A DNA stretch of 62,196 nt from contig CAMAPH010000015.1 in NCBI GenBank assembly GCA_945859975.1, positions 1 through 62,196 of the forward strand, in the 5' to 3' direction. This document shows, piece by piece, positions 28,877 to 37,560 of this stretch (position 1 is the stretch's first letter; each line of letters begins with the position of its first letter). The notes below the pieces were generated by a model. It was given only the letters and a program-made list of their open reading frames with translations. It made no database searches and was not told the DNA's origin. Source of the DNA: Chthonomonas calidirosea (lineage in GTDB: Bacteria; Armatimonadota; Fimbriimonadia; Fimbriimonadales; Fimbriimonadaceae). The position numbers and the translations under genes are program-made.

Positions 28877-30169
28877 TTAGCCAGTTTCGCGCAACTGAAG
28901 CTCGGTCAAGTAAATCGGCCGCGCGTTGCCTTCCAAAATTCCTTTAGGAACGATGACCCTCTGAACGTCCGGCAGACTCGGGACTTCGAACATTGCCTCT
29001 TGCAGAATCTCTTCTAGCAACGCTCGCAGCGCTCTTGCCCCGGTTTTGCGACGAATCGCTTCTCGGGCGATTTCTCGTAACGCCGAAGTCTCGACAGCGA
29101 GTTCTACGTCCTCAAGTTCAAAAAGATGCTTGTACTGCTTGATCAGCGAGTTCTTTGGCTCCGTCAAAACTCGGATCAGATCGTCCTCCGTGAGCGGATT
29201 TAATGCCGTAATCACGGGCAACCGACCGATGAACTCCGGCAGGAATCCGTATTTCACCAAGTCGTCTGGGACAACGTCCGTCGGCACGATGTCTAGCGCC
29301 TTTTCCGGTGCGTTGCGGAAACCCATCACGGCGCCTTGCTGCCGCCGCCGAACGATTTCCTCAATCCCCTCAAAAGAGCCGGCACAAATGAACAGGATTC
29401 CGGTCGTGTCGATCTGGATGAATTCCTGGTGCGGATGCTTACGCCCGCCATTTTGCGGAACGTTCGCGATCGTTCCTTCAAGGATTTTCAGGAGTCCTTG
29501 TTGCACCCCTTCGCCGCTCACGTCTCGGGTGATCGAAGTACCGCTTTGCGACTTCCGTGCGACCTTATCAATCTCGTCGATGTAAACGATCCCGCGCTCC
29601 GCGAGCTTTTTGGGGTCGGCTCCGTTGATGCTCTCCGCCTCTCGGTAAAGCCGGACCAAAACATTCTCAACGTCTTCGCCCACGTAGCCAGCTTCGGTGA
29701 GCGACGTTGCGTCGGCAATGGCAAACGGAACGTGCATCATCCGCGCCAAAGTCTGAGCAAGCAAAGTTTTGCCCGTTCCGGTCGGGCCCATGAGAAGGAT
29801 GTTGCTCTTCGAAACCTCGGTTCTCCCCGGTGTCGAGTCGAGGGTTCGTTTGTAATGGTTATAAACGCCGACGGCTAAGGCTCGCTTCGCCGCGTCTTGC
29901 CCCACCACGTAGGTGCTCAAAAATTCAACAATGCTTCTCGGCTTTGGTAGACGCGCTTTAGTGAATTCGGGATCAAGGGTCGGGGTCGCAGGGAAGGGAT
30001 GAGAATCGCTATTGCGAGCGCGGGTGCCTTCCTGATCAACGATCTCCGTGCATAGCTGAACGCAATCGGAGCAAATCGCCCCATAGAGTCCGGTAATCAG
30101 CCGCGACACTGAGTCCTTTGATCTTCCACAAAGGGCGCAGAGGTCGCGGCGATCTGGTGCCTGCATCAT
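28877..30169 (-). CDS. clpX: ATP-dependent Clp protease ATP-binding subunit ClpX
   Basis: C4 zinc-binding domain, [47 protein letters not shown]. Confidence 0.96.
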
Positions 30170-30179
30170 CGTGCCTTGA

Positions 30180-30764
30180 TTATCGGTTGGACGGTCGAAT
30201 TACGTTATCCACGATCCCGTAATCCTTCGCTTCGTCCGAAGACATCCATCGGTCACGATCGCAGTCGATTCGAACCTGCTCTGGATCCTTCTTGGTGTGC
30301 TCACCCAAGATGATCATGAGCTTGTCCATCAGCGTGTTGGTTTCTTTGACCTGAACATTGATGTCCGCCATGGTTCCTCGGAATCCGGAGGAGACTTGGT
30401 GAATCATCACGCGGGCGTTTGGCAACGCGCTTCGCTTGCCGTCCGCACCCGCGGCCAAGAGCACCGCGCCCATGCTCGCCGCGATTCCGACGCAAGTGGT
30501 CGCAATCGCTGGCTTCACCAACTGCATCGCATCGTAGATTGCGAGTCCGGCATAAACCGATCCGCCGGGCGAGTTGATGTAAAAGTCAATGTCCTTGTCT
30601 GGGTCTTCCTTTTCGAGGAACAAAAACTGGGCGACGATCAGGTTGGCGACATAGTCGTCAACTTCCGTGCCCAAGAAGACGATCCGGTCTTTGAGAAGCC
30701 TCGACCACAGGTCGTAGCTTCGCTCACCGTTCTGCGTTTTTTCGATAACGTACGGAATTCCCAT
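30180..30764 (-). CDS. clpP: ATP-dependent Clp protease proteolytic subunit
   Basis: [35 protein letters not shown]. Confidence 0.97.
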
Positions 30765-30877
30765 CTGAATGCAGATTACTCCGCGCTGAACTTGGGAGTT
30801 CGCAGGACCAATGCCGAGTAGGACCTTGGATCAGTCGCATCCAACGGGATCTCCCGCAAGCTTGAACCTTTAGTCTC

Positions 30878-31456
30878 TCAGCATTCCTCGACAAACCGTT
30901 CAATTCGAGGATCAGGAATGAGCCACATTGCCGCTAGAGCAGCGTAGATCACCATCGAAATCCGCGAGTCGTACGGCGACACCAGCACGCCGAGAACGTA
31001 GCCAACAATGGAGCTACGTCCTTTCAGATCGTTTCCGATCGCGCGGGCCAGGAGCGAGTTCGTTCCCTGTGAGCGAATGATCACCGTTTGAAGAATCCAG
31101 TAAGCCACCCCGCACATTCCCAAAGAGACGCCATACAGTTGAGTTGGAATTGCCGCAAAGTTCGACCGACCAAGCCAACTCGTTGTGAAGGGTACGAGGG
31201 TCAGCCAGAACAGCAGATGCATATTTGCCCACAAGATGCTTCCGTTTACACGGGTCGACAGCTTCATCATGTGGTGATGGTTGTTCCAGTAAATGCCGAC
31301 GTGGATGAAACTGAGAACGAACGAGAGAAACACCGGCCAAACCGACTTCAGCGCTTCCCAGGATGTTAGTTCCGGTGCCTTGATATCAAACACCATGATG
31401 GTGATGATGATCGCTAAGACCCCGTCACTAAACGCTTCAAGTCGACCGTTATTCAT
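30878..31456 (-). CDS. TMEM175-family K+/H+ channel
   Basis: RLEAFSDGVLAIIITIM signature, YWNNHHH, LVPFTT, W.IPD.RIE. Confidence 0.93.
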   Translation of the reverse strand: MNNGRLEAFSDGVLAIIITIMVFDIKAPELTSWEALKSVWPVFLSFVLSFIHVGIYWNNHHHMMKLSTRVNGSILWANMHLLFWLTLVPFTTSWLGRSNFAAIPTQLYGVSLGMCGVAYWILQTVIIRSQGTNSLLARAIGNDLKGRSSIVGYVLGVLVSPYDSRISMVIYAALAAMWLIPDPRIERFVEEC

Positions 31457-32204
31457 TTGGGTTTTGGAGATAGTCTTTCATTTCTCCGGAGGCAACGTCC
31501 ATCACGCAGAATCGTCTTGGCTGGCTGAATGAGCCGAGCTCGACATCACCGTTGTTCTGAATTGCCCCCATTAAAATGACGTACCGACACCGGACCTTCG
31601 TGGCCTTCACCAATTCGAGAATCCGCTCGTCAATTGCTTCATAGATCACTTCCGTTGCTTCAAAAATTCGGTTTGGAGCCCCAAGAATCCGATCCTTCTG
31701 CCTCAACAGAATCTGTTCAAGCGTGTTCATCTGGTAATCAAGCTCTTGCAGTTGGCCCGGTATAACTTCGTCCCGTTCCAGTCGGCCGAGCGCCGCCCGC
31801 GCGGCGCCGCAACAGCCCGTCCGGGCCGAATGACCGTGTCGCATGATGCTGCCAAGTTCACCTTCCGAAGAGATTCCGATGTGCGGTCCGTAATAAATGA
31901 ACATCGCGCCGTCCTCCGGTGCGTGACTTGCGAACGCGCCCATTCCCGTGAGGCCAGTGAACGGAAACCCGTCCAATCCACCCATCTTGAACGGGCCCAG
32001 AAACTCCTTTGCCCGCGCTGGGTATTGAATACTGTTGACATCATCGCTGCAGATGCTATCGGCTGACATCACTTGCGATGGTTCTAAGTCCAGCTCCATC
32101 TCCACAAAGTCGATGAGCCGATTCACCGCGTCAATTGTCGTTAAGGCACCCGGATAGTGCTGACGAATAATTTCAAGCTTCTCACGTTTTTTCATAAAGT
32201 TCAC
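31449..32204 (-). CDS. LCIB/LCIC-family (theta-type) carbonic anhydrase
   Basis: SICSDDVN, F.MGGL.GFPF.G.TGMGAF.SH.P, YGPHIGI, CCGA (Cys/His/Cys zinc ligands), DYQM. Confidence 0.85.
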   Translation of the reverse strand: MNFMKKREKLEIIRQHYPGALTTIDAVNRLIDFVEMELDLEPSQVMSADSICSDDVNSIQYPARAKEFLGPFKMGGLDGFPFTGLTGMGAFASHAPEDGAMFIYYGPHIGISSEGELGSIMRHGHSARTGCCGAARAALGRLERDEVIPGQLQELDYQMNTLEQILLRQKDRILGAPNRIFEATEVIYEAIDERILELVKATKVRCRYVILMGAIQNNGDVELGSFSQPRRFCVMDVASGEMKDYLQNPNE

Positions 32205-33199
32205 AAAAGGATGTCGTGGGTTGGCCGAATCGCCGGTGGCAATTCTGTTTCCCCAATCATCTCCAACATATCAATTTCCATTGCCCGTTGCAACTGAGCC
32301 ATCGGAACATCGTTCGGACCACCCTCAAACGGATTTTCAGTACTATCGCCCACCTGCTCCAAAGTAGTAAAGATCCAGGAAACAATCACGCTGAATGGAA
32401 CCACTAGCCAAACGCAGTAGGGGTTGTTCGGTGCCAATGCGCTGAACTCTTTCAGGAGTCCGAAGGGAAGCAGGGTTGCGAAAAGCTTCACAAACATGCC
32501 GTTCGCGGTCGCAAACTGACGAGGATACGGAGTGTTCTTAATCCGCTCGGCTCGACCCTGAGCATTGTAATGGCTGGTGATGGCCTCCTGAAGCGCGACG
32601 TGCCGAACCGAGTCCAGCTTGCCATCGGCCGCTAGCCGTCCAACGAGCGTCGACTGCAGGCCCATAATCTGCGTCGCCCGGTTCTTTGTTTTCAGGACGC
32701 CCGCAAGTTCTTCTTCCCCCAAAAACTTCGCCAGCTCCACTTCCACTGGCGTCACCATCTCCGGCACTTCGAACCAGCGCTCGCGATACTCCTGGTTCTG
32801 CGGCTCCACCATGCTCTCCCATGCTCGGGGCTCGCGAAGCTGATACCGCAAGGCCGCAACCCAGGCCAAATGCCGCCGAACCAAATCTCGGACCAGCTCC
32901 GGATCGTGCGGAAGGTAGCCCTTCGTCATTGCCGCCCAGGCCCGACTTGCATTCATGATGCTGCCCCAAATCTGCCGGGCTTCCCAGGCTCGATTGTAGC
33001 TCTGGGTGTTCTTGAAGCCGACAATGAAAGCGGTAGCCGTACCGAGCATCGCCACCACGGGCCAAGGAATCGCCAGCCACTTCCAACCCAGCCAAGCATA
33101 AAGCGCGACCGGAACGAAGCTGTGCACCAGCAGAATGAGCGCCCTCCGTCGGGTCCACAGCATGACTTCTGCAATCCGATACCGCCGCCCCGTGTGCAT
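32201..33199 (-). CDS. Bestrophin-family anion channel
   Basis: FIVGFKNTQSYNR.WEAR.IWG.I.N.SR, ERIKNTPYP, ENPFEG..NDVP. Confidence 0.93.
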   Translation of the reverse strand: MHTGRRYRIAEVMLWTRRRALILLVHSFVPVALYAWLGWKWLAIPWPVVAMLGTATAFIVGFKNTQSYNRAWEARQIWGSIMNASRAWAAMTKGYLPHDPELVRDLVRRHLAWVAALRYQLREPRAWESMVEPQNQEYRERWFEVPEMVTPVEVELAKFLGEEELAGVLKTKNRATQIMGLQSTLVGRLAADGKLDSVRHVALQEAITSHYNAQGRAERIKNTPYPRQFATANGMFVKLFATLLPFGLLKEFSALAPNNPYCVWLVVPFSVIVSWIFTTLEQVGDSTENPFEGGPNDVPMAQLQRAMEIDMLEMIGETELPPAIRPTHDILL

Positions 33200-33223
33200 G
33201 CCGCAATTATGTACAGAATCTTA

Positions 33224-33300
33224 GGAGTGCGACAGTTCTACTGCCCCTTTTCGCAACTCGCAAACTCACCCAAGGTCGTACCGCAGCGGCTCTGCCGCAG
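33224..33300 (+). repeat. Composite REP-like element, copy 1 (degenerate)
   Basis: GGAGTGCGACAGTTCTACTGCCCCTTT ... GGTCGTACCGCAGCGGCTCTGCCGCAG. Confidence 0.8.
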
Positions 33301-33312
33301 CCACCCGACCCT

Positions 33313-33407
33313 GGAGTGCGGCAGTTCTACTGCCGCTCTTTGCAACCCGCAAACACGCCGAAGGCCGTAGCGCGGCGGCTCTGCCGCCGCATGAGAATCA
33401 GTTGTAG
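33313..33407 (+). repeat. Composite REP-like element, copy 2
   Basis: GGAG-T-GCGGCAG-TTCTA-CTGCCGC ... GTAG-C-GCGGCGGC-TCT-GCCGCCGC ... TCAGTTGTAG. Confidence 0.85.
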
Positions 33408-33415
33408 CCTTCGAA

Positions 33416-33799
33416 CTATCGCGAACCGTCAGCAGTACCGAAAGAGCAATCCGCTCCAGCACACTGAACACGGTAGGTCCGGGATAAGAAGGGAGGCAGC
33501 TTATCCCGTGCATGAAAGACCGCCACGTTCTCGCCTTGCCGATCGTACGAGATTTCAAACCTCTCCCGCCTTTCCGGTCGTTCAAAAACTTCGCGGGTGT
33601 GCTCATGGATCGAGTCGAGAAGATCCGAGTAGCTTTCCGGCAACCAGCGATTCTCCACCCAATACTTCTCGGCATGAATCACTAAGAGCCCGAAACTTTG
33701 GTTTACAAAAGACTGCCACCGGAAGTACCGCTCGAACCCGAAACATCCTAAAGTCAGGACGGCGAAGATAATCAGCCCATTGCGTAGTTTCAAGTTCAT
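33416..33799 (-). CDS. Small membrane-anchored hypothetical protein
   Basis: AAGG-ATG start, N-terminal TM helix; lies between REP-like copies 2 and 3. Confidence 0.6.
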   Translation of the reverse strand: MNLKLRNGLIIFAVLTLGCFGFERYFRWQSFVNQSFGLLVIHAEKYWVENRWLPESYSDLLDSIHEHTREVFERPERRERFEISYDRQGENVAVFHARDKLPPFLSRTYRVQCAGADCSFGTADGSR

Positions 33800-33814
33800 C
33801 CTTCGATCCACTCT

Positions 33815-33910
33815 GGAGTGCGGCAGTTCTACTGCCGCTTTTTTGTAACTCACGTTTTCACCCAAAGTCGTACGGCGGCAGCTCTGCTGCTGCACTAGAC
33901 TCAGTTGTAG
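33815..33910 (+). repeat. Composite REP-like element, copy 3
   Basis: GGAGTGCGGCAGTTCTACTGCCGCTTT ... GTCGTACGGCGGCAGCTCTGCTGCTGC ... TCAGTTGTAG. Confidence 0.85.
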
Positions 33911-33921
33911 TCAGGGTTTGA

Positions 33922-34416
33922 CTACTTCAGCTTCCGGTACGCCTTCACGACCGAATCATCGTTGACCGCATTTTCCAACAATTCCCCAAGCATTTCCTTG
34001 TAGTCAGACGACACGACGAGCACGCGGCCCCGGTACCGAAAGAACTGAAAGAAGCGCCCTTCGACTTCAATCAGATTTGAACTCAAAGTGTCGATTCGTC
34101 CGTCGTAGCGATTGGCGCGGACGATGCGTGCAAGCAAGGGCTGAACCTCTTCTTCATCAAGGAAGGCAACGATCCCCGGTCGGTCACCGTCGATGTCAAC
34201 AACGGACTTCACGGAGATCGTTGTCCGCAATTGCTGGGCCAATCGCTTCTCACATTGCAGACGGTGCTTTTCGGTCGGATTCGGAAACTTTGCCTCACGA
34301 GCAATCGGCACAGCCCAAATGAGCATTCCCAGGCCAATAGCAATCATCACTCCAAAGTCAGTCCAGGGAAGCCCGAAGAACGATGACTTCTTTTTCACGC
34401 TTTTGATACTAGACAT
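33922..34416 (-). CDS. Membrane-anchored hypothetical protein, family A copy 1
   Basis: TM helix then PTE.HR...E, ISV.SVV.ID.DR.G.VA.L, RF..F..Y...VLVV shared with 35155..35715. Confidence 0.75.
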   Translation of the reverse strand: MSSIKSVKKKSSFFGLPWTDFGVMIAIGLGMLIWAVPIAREAKFPNPTEKHRLQCEKRLAQQLRTTISVKSVVDIDGDRPGIVAFLDEEEVQPLLARIVRANRYDGRIDTLSSNLIEVEGRFFQFFRYRGRVLVVSSDYKEMLGELLENAVNDDSVVKAYRKLK

Positions 34417-34488
34417 CCTCAATCTCAATCTCACTAGTTGATTCGGTCTTCCTTGCGGATTGCAAATTTGCCGAACCTTTGATCATGA

Positions 34489-35049
34489 TCAATCACTCAT
34501 CCTGTAGTTCTGGGATTCGACCAACTTGCCGTTCACAAAGGTCCTTTGGCAAAACAGCGGTCCAGACGCAAACATAACGCTCCAATAGCTGTAACCTTGG
34601 ATCAGCGTCACTCGACCGCTAAACGACTTTGTTACGGCAACGCTCCTCGCGTCATAATGCTCTTTCAGTCGGAAACAACGCCAGTCTTTTGCATCGTAAT
34701 TGTTCCCCGGACCAGCAAGCGTTCCTTCAAACTCACTGGTCCAAGATTGAATCGGCCCGGGTCCATTTTCATGCGTGCTTACGAAGAGCAAGCCCTCTCG
34801 CTTGCCATTACGGTTGAGCTGTTCATCTTTCCGGACAACTTCCATCGGCGTGATCCGAATGTCGATCGGATCGGTTTCCGTCAGATCAAGCGTGCCAGTC
34901 TTGTCAAATTGTTCAACGTATCCCTGCATCGATAGGGGGATTGGGCGCCATAGAACAAATACGGAAAGGGCAACGCAACCAACGGCTCCAACGACCATAA
35001 CTCCGCAGCATCCGAGTGCCACCTTCCGGTTCTGTCCCTTTCGCTCCAT
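34489..35049 (-). CDS. Membrane-anchored hypothetical protein, family B copy 1
   Basis: AGGGGAG SD; TM helix; QFD.TG, AVTKSFSGRV, RTFV.GKLVES shared with 35770..36312. Confidence 0.75.
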   Translation of the reverse strand: MERKGQNRKVALGCCGVMVVGAVGCVALSVFVLWRPIPLSMQGYVEQFDKTGTLDLTETDPIDIRITPMEVVRKDEQLNRNGKREGLLFVSTHENGPGPIQSWTSEFEGTLAGPGNNYDAKDWRCFRLKEHYDARSVAVTKSFSGRVTLIQGYSYWSVMFASGPLFCQRTFVNGKLVESQNYRMSD

Positions 35050-35108
35050 TTTGCTCCCCTTGTTTTAGCAACATCCTCAGAAGCGTCAGAGTGCCACGAT
35101 CGGATCTT

Positions 35109-35203
35109 GGAGTGCGGCAGTTCTACTGCCGCTTTTTGTCACCCCCGAGTTCACTCAAGGTCGTAGCAAGGCGGCTCTGCCGCCGTGTTGACCCAGTTCG
35201 TAA
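35109..35203 (+). repeat. Composite REP-like element, copy 4
   Basis: GGAGTGCGGCAGTTCTACTGCCGCTTT ... GGTCGTAGCAAGGCGGCTCTGCCGCC ... CCAGTTCGTA. Confidence 0.85.
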
Positions 35204-35715
35204 GCATTCATCCACTGTCGTCGAGTTGAGCCCAGTTGCGATTTCTTCCAGTACGCCGCATCCAAATGTCCACGGCTCTCGGCCGCGTCTCGCAAGTCAT
35301 CCAGGTAACCCCGATAACTGCACCAGACCACCAGGACCTCTGCTTTGTACTTCTCAAACCTGTAAAACCGCGCTCCGGTGCGGAAAAGGTTCTGGCCTAG
35401 TCGTTCAACTTTATCTCCGCTCAAATTCGCTTGATCAATGCGCGAAACAACGGTTTCAACGTTGTCATCTTCCAACAAGGCGACCATTCCGGACCGATCA
35501 AGATCGATGTGAACAACTGACTGAACCGAAATCGGAACTCCAAAATCCCGTCGCAGGTCCTGCTCAAGCCGTACTCGGTGAGATTCTGTCGGGATAGGAT
35601 GGTCAATCTCCGCCATCCACCTCGCGATCCAAACGATAGAAGCGACTCCAATGATTGACATCGCAACCAAGGCAATCCAGCCCGGATCCATGGCGCCAAA
35701 CCTGCTCCGACTCAT
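35155..35715 (-). CDS. Membrane-anchored hypothetical protein, family A copy 2
   Basis: Paralogue of 33922..34416; C-terminus extends into REP-like copy 4. Confidence 0.7.
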   Translation of the reverse strand: MSRSRFGAMDPGWIALVAMSIIGVASIVWIARWMAEIDHPIPTESHRVRLEQDLRRDFGVPISVQSVVHIDLDRSGMVALLEDDNVETVVSRIDQANLSGDKVERLGQNLFRTGARFYRFEKYKAEVLVVWCSYRGYLDDLRDAAESRGHLDAAYWKKSQLGSTRRQWMNAYELGQHGGRAALLRP

Positions 35716-35769
35716 CGCATTTGACCTAATGCCGTCAGTCTGCAAGCGCTCGGCCCATTGCTTCGAGCA

Positions 35770-36312
35770 TTAGTCCGCAATGTAGTCATCCGATTCCACC
35801 AACTTGCCATCAACAAAAGTCCGCCAGGAACAAAGGAATCCGCCCGTGAAACACATGGTCAGAAAGTCTGGTCTTTCCATAATCAAAACTCGCCCGCTGA
35901 ACGATTTGGTTACCGCAATGCTACTAGAGTCAACTTGTGCCTCCATCCGATAACACGTGAGGTCTTGGATACGCCCTGGGTGCTTTCCACCCGTGTCCGG
36001 CTCCTCCCATCGACCGCTTCGTAAGTATGAGAGTCTCGGATTCGTGTCTCGCCTATTTAGGCAGATGAAGTCCCCTTCCTCGCGCGTGATGTTCGCTAAT
36101 TTTTCATCGCTCACGACCCCTAGCGGCGTTATTGTCAATGAAACGGTTTCGGTCCCATTCAAAACGAGAATGCCCGTTTCATCAAACTGTTTTATGTACT
36201 CCTTAGCCGCCGCACCGGGTGACGGATAGTAGAGTTGAACAGCAATCGCAATGGATGCGATGAGCCCGATGCCAGTCAGAACTTCACGCCTTCCGAACTG
36301 CTCCTGCATCAT
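35770..36312 (-). CDS. Membrane-anchored hypothetical protein, family B copy 2
   Basis: Paralogue of 34489..35049. Confidence 0.72.
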   Translation of the reverse strand: MMQEQFGRREVLTGIGLIASIAIAVQLYYPSPGAAAKEYIKQFDETGILVLNGTETVSLTITPLGVVSDEKLANITREEGDFICLNRRDTNPRLSYLRSGRWEEPDTGGKHPGRIQDLTCYRMEAQVDSSSIAVTKSFSGRVLIMERPDFLTMCFTGGFLCSWRTFVDGKLVESDDYIAD

Positions 36313-36480
36313 CGACCTTCTCACAGAAATCTTAACGCGCGAGGCTTGATTCCAGTGCCACATCTTTGGGGCCCGGCGGCTCGGCCACCGCATTCCAACC
36401 AGGTCGTAGCCAGCAACCGAGTCCCACCGCCTCCCGCTATAGCCTCCAGACCCCGTTTGCCGGTAACCTTCCGGCCACAG

Positions 36481-37560
36481 ATGGCAAAGGGAAGAGTAGG
36501 GATTCTAACGAGCGGTGGCGATTGTAGTGGGTTGAACGCAGTCATTGCCTCCGTCGTCAAAGTAGGCATCCCGATGGGATACGAGTTCGTCGGTTTTGAG
36601 CGTGGCTGGGAAGGCGTGTTGTCGCCCATCACCTGCCGACCCCTTGGACTCAATGACGTCCGCGGCATCAGCTTCATCGGCGGAACGATTCTCAAGACCA
36701 CCAACCGCGGCCGGTTCGGCGGAAAGGTCGGCGCCGGCGGCGTTCGACGAATCCCGGACGACATCCTCGAGATGGCCAAGGCGAACCTTCAAGAAGTTGG
36801 GATCGACGCTCTCGTCGTCATCGGCGGAGACGGCACCTTAAACGCCGCTCTCCAGCTCGAAGAATTTGGCGTAAAGATCATTGGCGTCCCCAAGACCATC
36901 GACAACGACCTGATGGCGACGGACCGAACCTTCGGCTTCTCGACCGCCGTGCAAGTCGTGACCGACGCGCTGGACCGAATCCACACCACCGCCTCTAGCC
37001 ACAGCCGTATCCTCTTCCTCGAAACCATGGGCCGCCACGCGGGTTGGATCGCCCTTCGCGCCGGCCTTGCCGGTGGTGCCGATGCCATCCTCCTCCCTGA
37101 ATTCCCCTTCAAGGTCCACGACCTCATGGAGTTCCTCCGCTACCGACAAGAGCAATACGGCTCTTCCATCGTCGTTGTCGCCGAAGGCGCGATGATCGAC
37201 GACCGACAGGTGATCCAGGCGGGTGGCAAGTCCAGCGAAGTGCTCCTAGGCGGAGTGTCCACCGAAGTCATGCGAACACTAGAGGAAATGGCACCGGGCG
37301 AATTTGAAATGCGCGGCACCGTGCTCGGCCACGTCCAGCGTGGCGGAACGCCAAACCCCGCCGACCGAATCCTCGCCAAAGCCTACGGCGTCGAAGCCAT
37401 CAAGGCCGTTGACCGAGGCGAAAGCGGCGTCATGGTTGCCTACCAGAACCAGGAGATGTGCACCGTGCCAATCGCCGATGCCTGTGGACAGCTCAAAACT
37501 GTGCGGAACGACACCATGGAGTACGTCACCGCCCGAGACCTCGGCGTCTTCATTCACTAA
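36481..37560 (+). CDS. pfkA: 6-phosphofructokinase
   Basis: ILTSGGDCSGLNAVI, GGTIL, IGGDGT, PKTIDND, ETMGRHAG, LGHVQRGG. Confidence 0.95.
   Translation: MAKGRVGILTSGGDCSGLNAVIASVVKVGIPMGYEFVGFERGWEGVLSPITCRPLGLNDVRGISFIGGTILKTTNRGRFGGKVGAGGVRRIPDDILEMAKANLQEVGIDALVVIGGDGTLNAALQLEEFGVKIIGVPKTIDNDLMATDRTFGFSTAVQVVTDALDRIHTTASSHSRILFLETMGRHAGWIALRAGLAGGADAILLPEFPFKVHDLMEFLRYRQEQYGSSIVVVAEGAMIDDRQVIQAGGKSSEVLLGGVSTEVMRTLEEMAPGEFEMRGTVLGHVQRGGTPNPADRILAKAYGVEAIKAVDRGESGVMVAYQNQEMCTVPIADACGQLKTVRNDTMEYVTARDLGVFIH

Follow-up and report, generated by a model that had tools for sequence, protein, structure and literature searches.

A bestrophin and LCIB-type carbonic anhydrase gene pair inserted in the leader of a resident TMEM175 gene, with a possible role in bicarbonate export

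The three genes and their proteins

We analyzed a stretch of 62,196 nucleotides from Chthonomonas calidirosea (contig CAMAPH010000015.1 of assembly GCA_945859975.1), hereafter the window, in which three genes lie close together on the minus strand: a bestrophin-family channel (32201-33199; 332 amino acids), which is the first gene of the operon, a carbonic anhydrase of the LCIB/theta type (31449-32204; 251 amino acids when counted from a GTG at 32204), and a TMEM175-family cation channel (30878-31456; 192 amino acids), a resident gene whose leader took an insertion. The bestrophin-LCIB pair proved to be a mobile unit, and the three-gene operon a lineage-specific, recent insertion beside the resident gene. 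An earlier note on this DNA had described tight junctions between the three genes, and these are borne out by the open reading frame (ORF) list and by reading of the sequence. The bestrophin stop codon TGA (32203-32201) overlaps the GTG at 32204; however, the LCIB homologues begin at MKKRE, which corresponds to an ATG at 32195 in the window, and this ATG is therefore the more likely start, giving 248 amino acids and lying 5 nucleotides past the bestrophin stop. The LCIB stop codon TAA overlaps the TMEM175 start inside ATGAATAA (31456-31449), an overlap of 8 nucleotides. The arrangement is not an assembly artefact, because a contig of 22.8 kb obtained in another study (X2) covers window positions 30000-33391 at ~96% identity with all three genes in place, and another contig (X4) crosses the LCIB/TMEM175 joint.

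The family assignments of the earlier note were confirmed by profile search against Pfam, in which the middle protein matched LCIB_C_CA (PF18599; 1.4e-71, 240.8 bits against a cut-off of 25) over profile positions 2-223 of 223, the first matched Bestrophin_2 (PF25539; 7.1e-45, 154.2 bits against a cut-off of 27) and the third matched TMEM175 (PF06736; 5.6e-30, 104.1 bits against a cut-off of 25); NCBIfam held a model for none of the three proteins. The best solved match of the bestrophin was KpBest (4wd7; 3.6e-27, residues 19-326) and that of TMEM175 was CmTMEM175 (5vre; 2.2e-16). The window TMEM175 carries the RxxxFSD motif on its first transmembrane segment (R5, F9, S10 and D11), where GRLEAFSDGV aligns to GRIEAFSDGV of CmTMEM175. 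It thus belongs to the same family as the bacterial and lysosomal channels (5vre, 6w8n), which share this motif, and has a single six-transmembrane repeat as the bacterial members do. We know of no TMEM175 that is tied to a carbonic anhydrase or a bestrophin; the one in the window differs in this respect, through the recent insertion.

The LCIB protein found its best solved-structure matches, by sequence search of the PDB, in 6kfs (3e-30) and the diatom theta-carbonic anhydrase PtLCIB4 (5b5y; 3e-25), both at ~27-30% identity, followed by CrLCIB (3e-13). In this alignment the CSD...H...CC positions of PtLCIB4 and 6kfs are matched by C52, D54, H108 and C132, so that C52, H108 and C132 are the putative zinc ligands, with D54 and H94 as further site residues. 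The spacing of the three ligands (56 and 24 residues) is that of C46, H102 and C126, the zinc ligands of PtLCIB4, where D48 is the neighbouring Asp; the Cys-x-Asp...His...Cys pattern is thus kept at 52/54/108/132. H94 corresponds to H88, the residue mutated in entry 5b5z. All five residues are invariant in 20/20 and 53/53 aligned bacterial homologues, and the Cys/His/Cys zinc ligands read by the earlier note hold. The first Cys is followed by Ser, which is also the residue in the crystallised wild type of PtLCIB4 (an S47R mutant of the latter has been deposited too); in CrLCIB this residue is presumably Arg.

An AlphaFold2 model of the LCIB protein (pLDDT 83.3, pTM 0.86) superposes on PtLCIB4. 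In Foldseek searches it reached template-modelling (TM) scores of 0.79-0.84 to 5b5y and 6kfs and 0.60-0.75 to CrLCIB and LCIC (5k5w, 5b5x), and ordinary beta-carbonic anhydrases ranked far lower (E ~0.01-0.1). The model thus predicts a beta-carbonic-anhydrase-like fold of the LCIB type for the middle gene, which the earlier note had assumed, and with its intact active-site residues the protein is a predicted carbonic anhydrase of the LCIB/theta class. It is probably cytoplasmic, because no signal or targeting peptide was found in its sequence. The lack of a targeting peptide distinguishes it from the diatom theta-carbonic anhydrase, as does its place in a very tight bacterial clade (63-71% mutual identity). 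Two ordinary beta-carbonic anhydrase genes lie elsewhere in the host genome; LCIB is therefore an additional, specialised carbonic anhydrase in this host.

LCIB homologues are numerous: 1773 were found at E <= 1e-5 among protein clusters at 90% identity, most of the top ones, with 63-71% identity, coming from Bacteroidota, and a 50%-identity library gave 1183 representatives at E <= 1e-3. A preprint (bioRxiv 2021.03.04.433933) already mentions homologues of LCIB in bacteria. Some of the 50%-identity representatives (P0244, P0266, P0276, P0297, P0301 and others) have unusual architectures: LCIB is present two or three times in tandem, or is joined to a Na+/Ca2+ exchanger that has Calx-beta, to DUF1275, to cyclic-nucleotide (cNMP)-binding domains (P0266 and P0276) or to PAP_fibrillin. 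In one family of the host phylum, 4/6 genomes sampled have a divergent subfamily of LCIB, which shares 30-37% identity with the window protein; its loci (L202:4977-5714, L203:4965-5774, L196 and L197) adjoin ABC permease and oxidoreductase genes, and neither a bestrophin nor an ion channel was found beside this subfamily.

Insertion in the TMEM175 leader

Comparison with two sister genomes located the insertion. Through clpX, clpP and TMEM175, gene order in the window is matched by G014 (93% nucleotide identity) up to position 31470 and by G036 (80%) up to 31486; the alignments pick up again only at 33224 and 33302, respectively. The inserted segment, delimited by blastn synteny, junction alignments and the joint in a metagenome contig (X5), spans ~1.72-1.73 kb (31471-33201), holds bestrophin and LCIB, and is absent from both sister genomes and from X5. 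Its 3' joint falls between 31470 and 31486, within the last LCIB codons; the ATGAATAA overlap is thus the insertion joint itself, and native leader DNA supplies the last few codons of LCIB. On the upstream side, sequence and alignment place a conserved motif, TGTACATAATTGCG (33202-33215, minus strand), which ends 2 nucleotides before the bestrophin ATG, and the motif TTGTACATAATTGCG lies ~45-55 nucleotides upstream of the TMEM175 ATG in both G014 and G036. The breaks in sister synteny and the shared upstream motif together show that ~1.72 kb with the two genes took the place of most of the TMEM175 leader. The motif TGTACATAAT may be the native promoter or leader start of TMEM175, which would now drive three genes; it went uncalled in a sigma-70 scan, and the promoter/terminator scan of the stretch gave nothing above shuffle expectation.

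TMEM175 is a resident gene of this genus. Homologues were present in 30/36 genus genomes searched, the protein is 100% identical in G014 and 88% identical in G036, both of which are without the bestrophin-LCIB pair, and the order TMEM175-clpP-clpX is common to the window and these two genomes. LCIB was found only in this genome, both among 61 relatives searched with the protein and in a family search of all 46 genus genomes (0/45 others), and a close bestrophin was found in 0/60 relatives. We considered a loss of the pair in the sister genomes and rejected it, since G014 and G036 share the ancestral leader and LCIB is missing from the other 45 genomes of the genus; we argue for a gain in the window lineage over two precise losses. 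X5, from a further study, joins position 31463 to 33483 with 217 other letters between, at ~98% identity, and represents the empty site. Because the filled (X2) and the empty (X5) forms both occur in lake-water metagenome contigs from independent studies, the three-gene arrangement is real, polymorphic and young.

As for the origin of the pair, the GC content of its genes, overall and at third codon positions, matches that of host genes. The nearest LCIB is a metagenome protein (P0001) with 94% identity and the same termini, the next being 71% identical and from a Verrucomicrobia metagenome-assembled genome (MAG); a metagenome scan for an LCIB donor gave none above 70% identity. The window bestrophin and LCIB stand on long branches (0.82-0.85), the bestrophin being nested among Bacteroidota sequences. 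The LCIB fell into no particular group in the tree, and none of these comparisons pointed to a donor.

Several features surround the insertion. A repeat search (families D1-D3) placed two tandem copies of a REP-like element, which resembles repetitive extragenic palindromes, at its upstream border (33218-33389, plus strand). The element is intergenic, ~85-90 nucleotides long, with two GC-rich hairpins, and occurs in four copies (33218-33300, 33307-33389, 33810-33910 and 35103-35203); its 24-nucleotide core is matched 4 times in the window, where 0 matches would be expected. Its copies border cassettes that differ between the sister genomes, the bestrophin-LCIB insertion included. Farther upstream lies a tandemly duplicated two-gene unit (33922-35049 and 35155-36393) encoding proteins of 170 and 186 and of 196 and 207 amino acids, visibly paralogous, for which no Pfam family was found. 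Positions 33911-35107 are missing in G014 and 35186-36431 in G036, so that the region from tig to clpP is variable here. A phosphofructokinase ORF (36235-37560, plus strand) has an N-terminal extension of ~85 amino acids that overlaps the neighbouring minus-strand ORF; its Pfam match begins at residue 87, and the true start is probably internal. Downstream of TMEM175, after a gap of 113 nucleotides in which no terminator-like site was called, the ORF list gives clpP (30180-30764) and clpX (28877-30169) on the minus strand, which are possibly co-transcribed with TMEM175; no RNA run was found to contain the stretch. ClpX shows the same 51-54% identity to genomes of Verrucomicrobiaceae, Pedobacter, Sandaracinaceae and Kapaibacterium.

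Conservation of the pair and the neck of its bestrophin

We surveyed LCIB neighbourhoods by tblastn with the window proteins in two sets, one drawn from 185,579 species genomes, in which a pattern scan found 243 stretches that were confirmed and from which the 80 best loci were taken, the other a separate set of metagenome loci comprising the 80 best matches to the window LCIB. A bestrophin lies on the same strand, 0-440 nucleotides from LCIB, in 57/80 genome loci, upstream in 48, as in the window, and downstream in 9. It adjoins LCIB in 51/80 metagenome loci, or 30/44 when at least 1.1 kb is present on both flanks, so that the linkage amounts to 108/160 loci overall. The adjacency spans at least three deep bestrophin subtypes, several orders and both gene orders. 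TMEM175 was found next to LCIB in 0/80 genome loci and 0/80 metagenome loci. The conserved unit thus consists of two genes, bestrophin and LCIB, and not of three, and the three-gene unit put forward in the earlier note fails in this survey.

This result bears on the idea that the three genes are one evolved unit, in which TMEM175 would be a dedicated K+/H+ counter-ion partner of the pair. The junctions are tight, the three genes are apparently under one upstream motif, and the same joint is kept in the X2 lineage, which is ~4% diverged, and at the same termini of the 94%-identical LCIB P0001. In addition, unrelated K+ channels accompany the pair elsewhere, and landing before a cation channel could have been selected. 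However, the stop/start overlap sits at the insertion joint and is hence a by-product of insertion, G014 and G036 have TMEM175-clpP-clpX but not the pair, the distribution of TMEM175 in the genus (30/36) is out of step with that of LCIB (0/45 others), and no linkage appears in the 160 other loci. As a single event, the case is also beyond statistical testing. We consider an evolved three-gene unit unlikely.

Neighbour genes were clustered, and 150/177 cluster representatives were scanned against Pfam. Among those scanned, the recurrent partners besides bestrophin were limited to a K+ channel and a cNMP-binding regulator. The K+ channel (Ion_trans_2, PF07885; 225 amino acids) lies on the same strand in 19/80 genome loci, in the order K+ channel-bestrophin-LCIB in 17/19 and beside LCIB without a bestrophin in 2/19, and it was found in 26/80 metagenome loci; the filter sequence T(S/T)IG(F/Y)GD is present in 18/19 of the channels from genome loci. 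Versions upstream of bestrophin occur in many Bacteroidota. The idea of a counter-ion channel, which the earlier note had tied to TMEM175, thus keeps support in another form, as this unrelated K+ channel. The cNMP-binding regulator neighbours 6 loci, and at one locus (L070) a Na+/H+ exchanger directly follows the bestrophin. In two Spirosoma loci without a bestrophin (L018:3116-5875 and L043:3066-5825), LCIB is closely preceded on its own strand by a gene for an H+-pyrophosphatase with a fused OmpA domain; the LCIB frame of L043 is split into two ORFs and may be broken. A locus labelled as a Vulcanococcus MAG (L030) has the trio of K+ channel, bestrophin and LCIB, its bestrophin nests among Bacteroidota, and the contig may have been misbinned in a cyanobacterial MAG. 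We found no description of a conserved bacterial bestrophin-LCIB operon, with or without the K+ channel, or of the neck signature described below, in open-access PMC and bioRxiv full text.

The pore neck of the window bestrophin, mapped through an ungapped alignment to KpBest, is T54/F58/F62. The middle Phe is present in 56/56 LCIB-linked bestrophins from genomes (48 with T-F-F and 8 with I-F-F) and in 43/43 from metagenomes, that is, in 99/99 overall, and in 0/14 unlinked Bestrophin_2 proteins, which have I, L or V at this position and, as controls, all come from a single phylum, that of the host, its genus included. According to the review PMC8496536, Na+ is conducted by KpBest of Klebsiella, the only bacterial bestrophin to have been characterised, whose neck reads I62/I66/F70; the I66F mutation makes it favour Cl-, and I-F-F is the neck of the anion-selective bestrophins of eukaryotes. 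The earlier note had taken conduction of Cl- and HCO3- by bestrophins as established, which is not so for bacteria. The window bestrophin is of the same Pfam family as KpBest (4wd7/4wd8), of similar length, and likewise has a hydrophobic three-residue neck on its second transmembrane segment; it differs, together with its 99 LCIB-linked relatives, in having T/I-F-F with the middle Phe of the eukaryotic anion type instead of the I-I-F of the Na+-conducting channel. The Phe neck is therefore a signature specific to LCIB linkage that points to anion conduction, as a predictor only. The window bestrophin also scores lower on the Pfam model (153 bits) than the unlinked bestrophins (215-302), and so belongs to a divergent subfamily.

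Bicarbonate export and its alternatives

The guess of the earlier note that the host is a heterotroph holds: no RuBisCO large subunit (PF00016) was found in its 95.8%-complete genome by a search that, as a control, found it in 5/14 reference genomes. Because RuBisCO was not found, the bestrophin-LCIB pair is not a CO2-concentrating mechanism. The "bacterial echo" of the algal LCIB/BST module claimed in the earlier note is accordingly real at the level of gene linkage, since the two genes form a strongly conserved bacterial pair (57/80 and 51/80 loci), and does not extend to carbon concentration. In algae, stromal LCIB feeds the thylakoid BST channels (PMC13655443). In Chlamydomonas, with LCIB/LCIC and BST1-3, the same two families act in series, CO2 being converted to HCO3- on the N-side (stroma) and HCO3- then flowing passively through bestrophin to the P-side (lumen), as described in PMC13655443 and PMC6708349; in the bacterial series that we propose, the corresponding sides would be cytoplasm and periplasm. 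The LCIB fold is shared between the two systems, as the TM scores to 5k5w and 5b5x indicate. They differ in that the bacterial host has no RuBisCO, pyrenoid or lumenal carbonic anhydrase to receive the carbon, in that the bacterial genes form an operon, and in that KpBest (4e-27) is a closer match to the bacterial bestrophin than is 7ek1 (9e-6), a bestrophin-like protein of plant thylakoids.

We tentatively favour, at somewhat less than an even chance, a reading in which a mobile module of anion-type bestrophin and cytoplasmic LCIB, inserted in the TMEM175 leader upstream of clpP-clpX, exports HCO3- for the balance of pH and inorganic carbon. LCIB would hydrate cytoplasmic CO2 to HCO3- and H+, and the inside-negative membrane potential would drive HCO3- out through the bestrophin pore; with such a potential a channel could pass HCO3- only outward, the Nernst relation giving an inside/outside anion ratio of ~0.003-0.01 at -120 to -150 mV. 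The balancing current would be carried by a cation channel, which in many Bacteroidota would be the Ion_trans_2 K+ channel and in the window possibly the captured TMEM175. Overall, (K)HCO3 would be exported and the proton retained, and, with K+ leaving through the cation channel, the process would be electroneutral and equivalent to K+/H+ exchange. It would help to keep cytoplasmic pH and inorganic carbon in balance in lake water that is alkaline and poor in CO2; lake water is the habitat given by the sequencing-run labels.

A number of points weigh against this reading. Both locus sets consist of the best 80 matches to the window LCIB, many of them on truncated contigs, and the loci are phylogenetically non-independent and mostly from Bacteroidota. 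There is no adjacent bestrophin in 23/80 genome loci. A search of five such genomes found a bestrophin of the LCIB-linked type elsewhere in two and nothing but distant bestrophins in three, so LCIB can function in the absence of its partner. No bestrophin-LCIB fusion was found: a search for longer proteins returned nothing, which is weak evidence, and a bestrophin domain was present in 0/34 long representatives scanned. As for the channels, selectivity of bestrophins depends on more than one residue, the only characterised bacterial member is cation-selective (PMC8496536), and TMEM175, linked in none of the 160 other loci, may play its role here by accident. If respiration, not K+ flux, restores charge, HCO3- efflux would lead to no net acidification. 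Secondary sources also differ as to which LCIB homologues are active, with PMC5876011 on one side and PMC9614477 and bioRxiv 2021.03.04.433933 on the other.

Export can be set against supply. LCIB may instead trap CO2 as HCO3- for carboxylases (in anaplerosis and in fatty-acid and nucleotide synthesis) at low CO2, with the bestrophin as an uptake route or a gated overflow valve. A heterotrophic host without detected RuBisCO in lake water would suit this, and heterotrophs use DAB-type and beta-carbonic anhydrase systems for exactly that purpose. However, two beta-carbonic anhydrases are already present in the genome, an open leak would defeat the trapping, and a channel should not be able to accumulate an anion against an inside-negative potential, which disfavours uptake. 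We regard bicarbonate supply as doubtful, to the same degree as the evolved three-gene unit.

It is less probable still, though conceivable, that the LCIB-like protein is not a working enzyme and serves as a CO2/HCO3--sensing or regulatory subunit of a channel for Cl- or another anion. Chlamydomonas LCIB/LCIC are reportedly without activity in vitro (PMC5876011), and the LCIB-cNMP-binding fusions and the cNMP-binding regulators that neighbour 6 loci would fit a regulatory role, but all catalytic and zinc positions are invariant, Ser follows the first Cys as in PtLCIB4, and conservation is very high, with 63-71% identity across phyla. A mere adjacency of hitch-hiking neighbours on a mobile fragment, for which one could cite the horizontal movement of the pair and the failure to find fusion proteins, is very improbable and disfavoured by linkage in 108/160 loci across several orders, two gene orders and divergent bestrophin subtypes, and by a neck signature specific to linked bestrophins.

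Returning to bicarbonate export, the idea of ion transport coupled to a carbonic anhydrase is already known. DabAB and the SulP-carbonic anhydrase fusions are bacterial inorganic-carbon transporters of this kind, also in heterotrophs, and, like the present pair, they genetically couple a carbonic anhydrase, there beta-like, to an ion-translocating membrane protein. The bacterial bestrophin partner differs from them in being a channel, not a pump or carrier, and in its predicted direction, efflux and not accumulation. In a wider form, which we put forward as possible and rather unlikely, an anion-type bestrophin and a theta-carbonic anhydrase, often with a K+ channel, would be a widespread, horizontally mobile "bicarbonate valve" through which metabolic CO2 would end up, under the membrane potential, as exported (K)HCO3 and a retained proton. 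It would be the prokaryotic counterpart and possibly the source of the algal LCIB/BST step with its K+ counter-ion pathways, and a Phe in place of I, L or V at the neck would mark the bacterial bestrophins that conduct HCO3- or other anions.

For the window itself the lesson is more modest: a striking three-gene operon is a recent insertion beside a resident gene and not an ancient module, its TMEM175 neighbour is incidental or opportunistic, and the window holds one recently acquired copy of the pair. Filled and empty sites in near-identical lake populations offer a natural experiment, in which carriage of the pair can be set against pH and dissolved inorganic carbon, and the Phe neck gives a sequence-level prediction of selectivity for anions, HCO3- among them. 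Three open questions are touched, namely the role of bacterial bestrophins, whether proteins of the LCIB type work as carbonic anhydrases and do so in one direction, and whether HCO3- passes through bestrophins in CO2-concentrating mechanisms. A conserved bacterial operon that joins bestrophin and LCIB, with cultured carriers that include Pedobacter, Emticicia, Runella, Spirosoma and Flavobacterium, would be a simple, genetically tractable system for all three.

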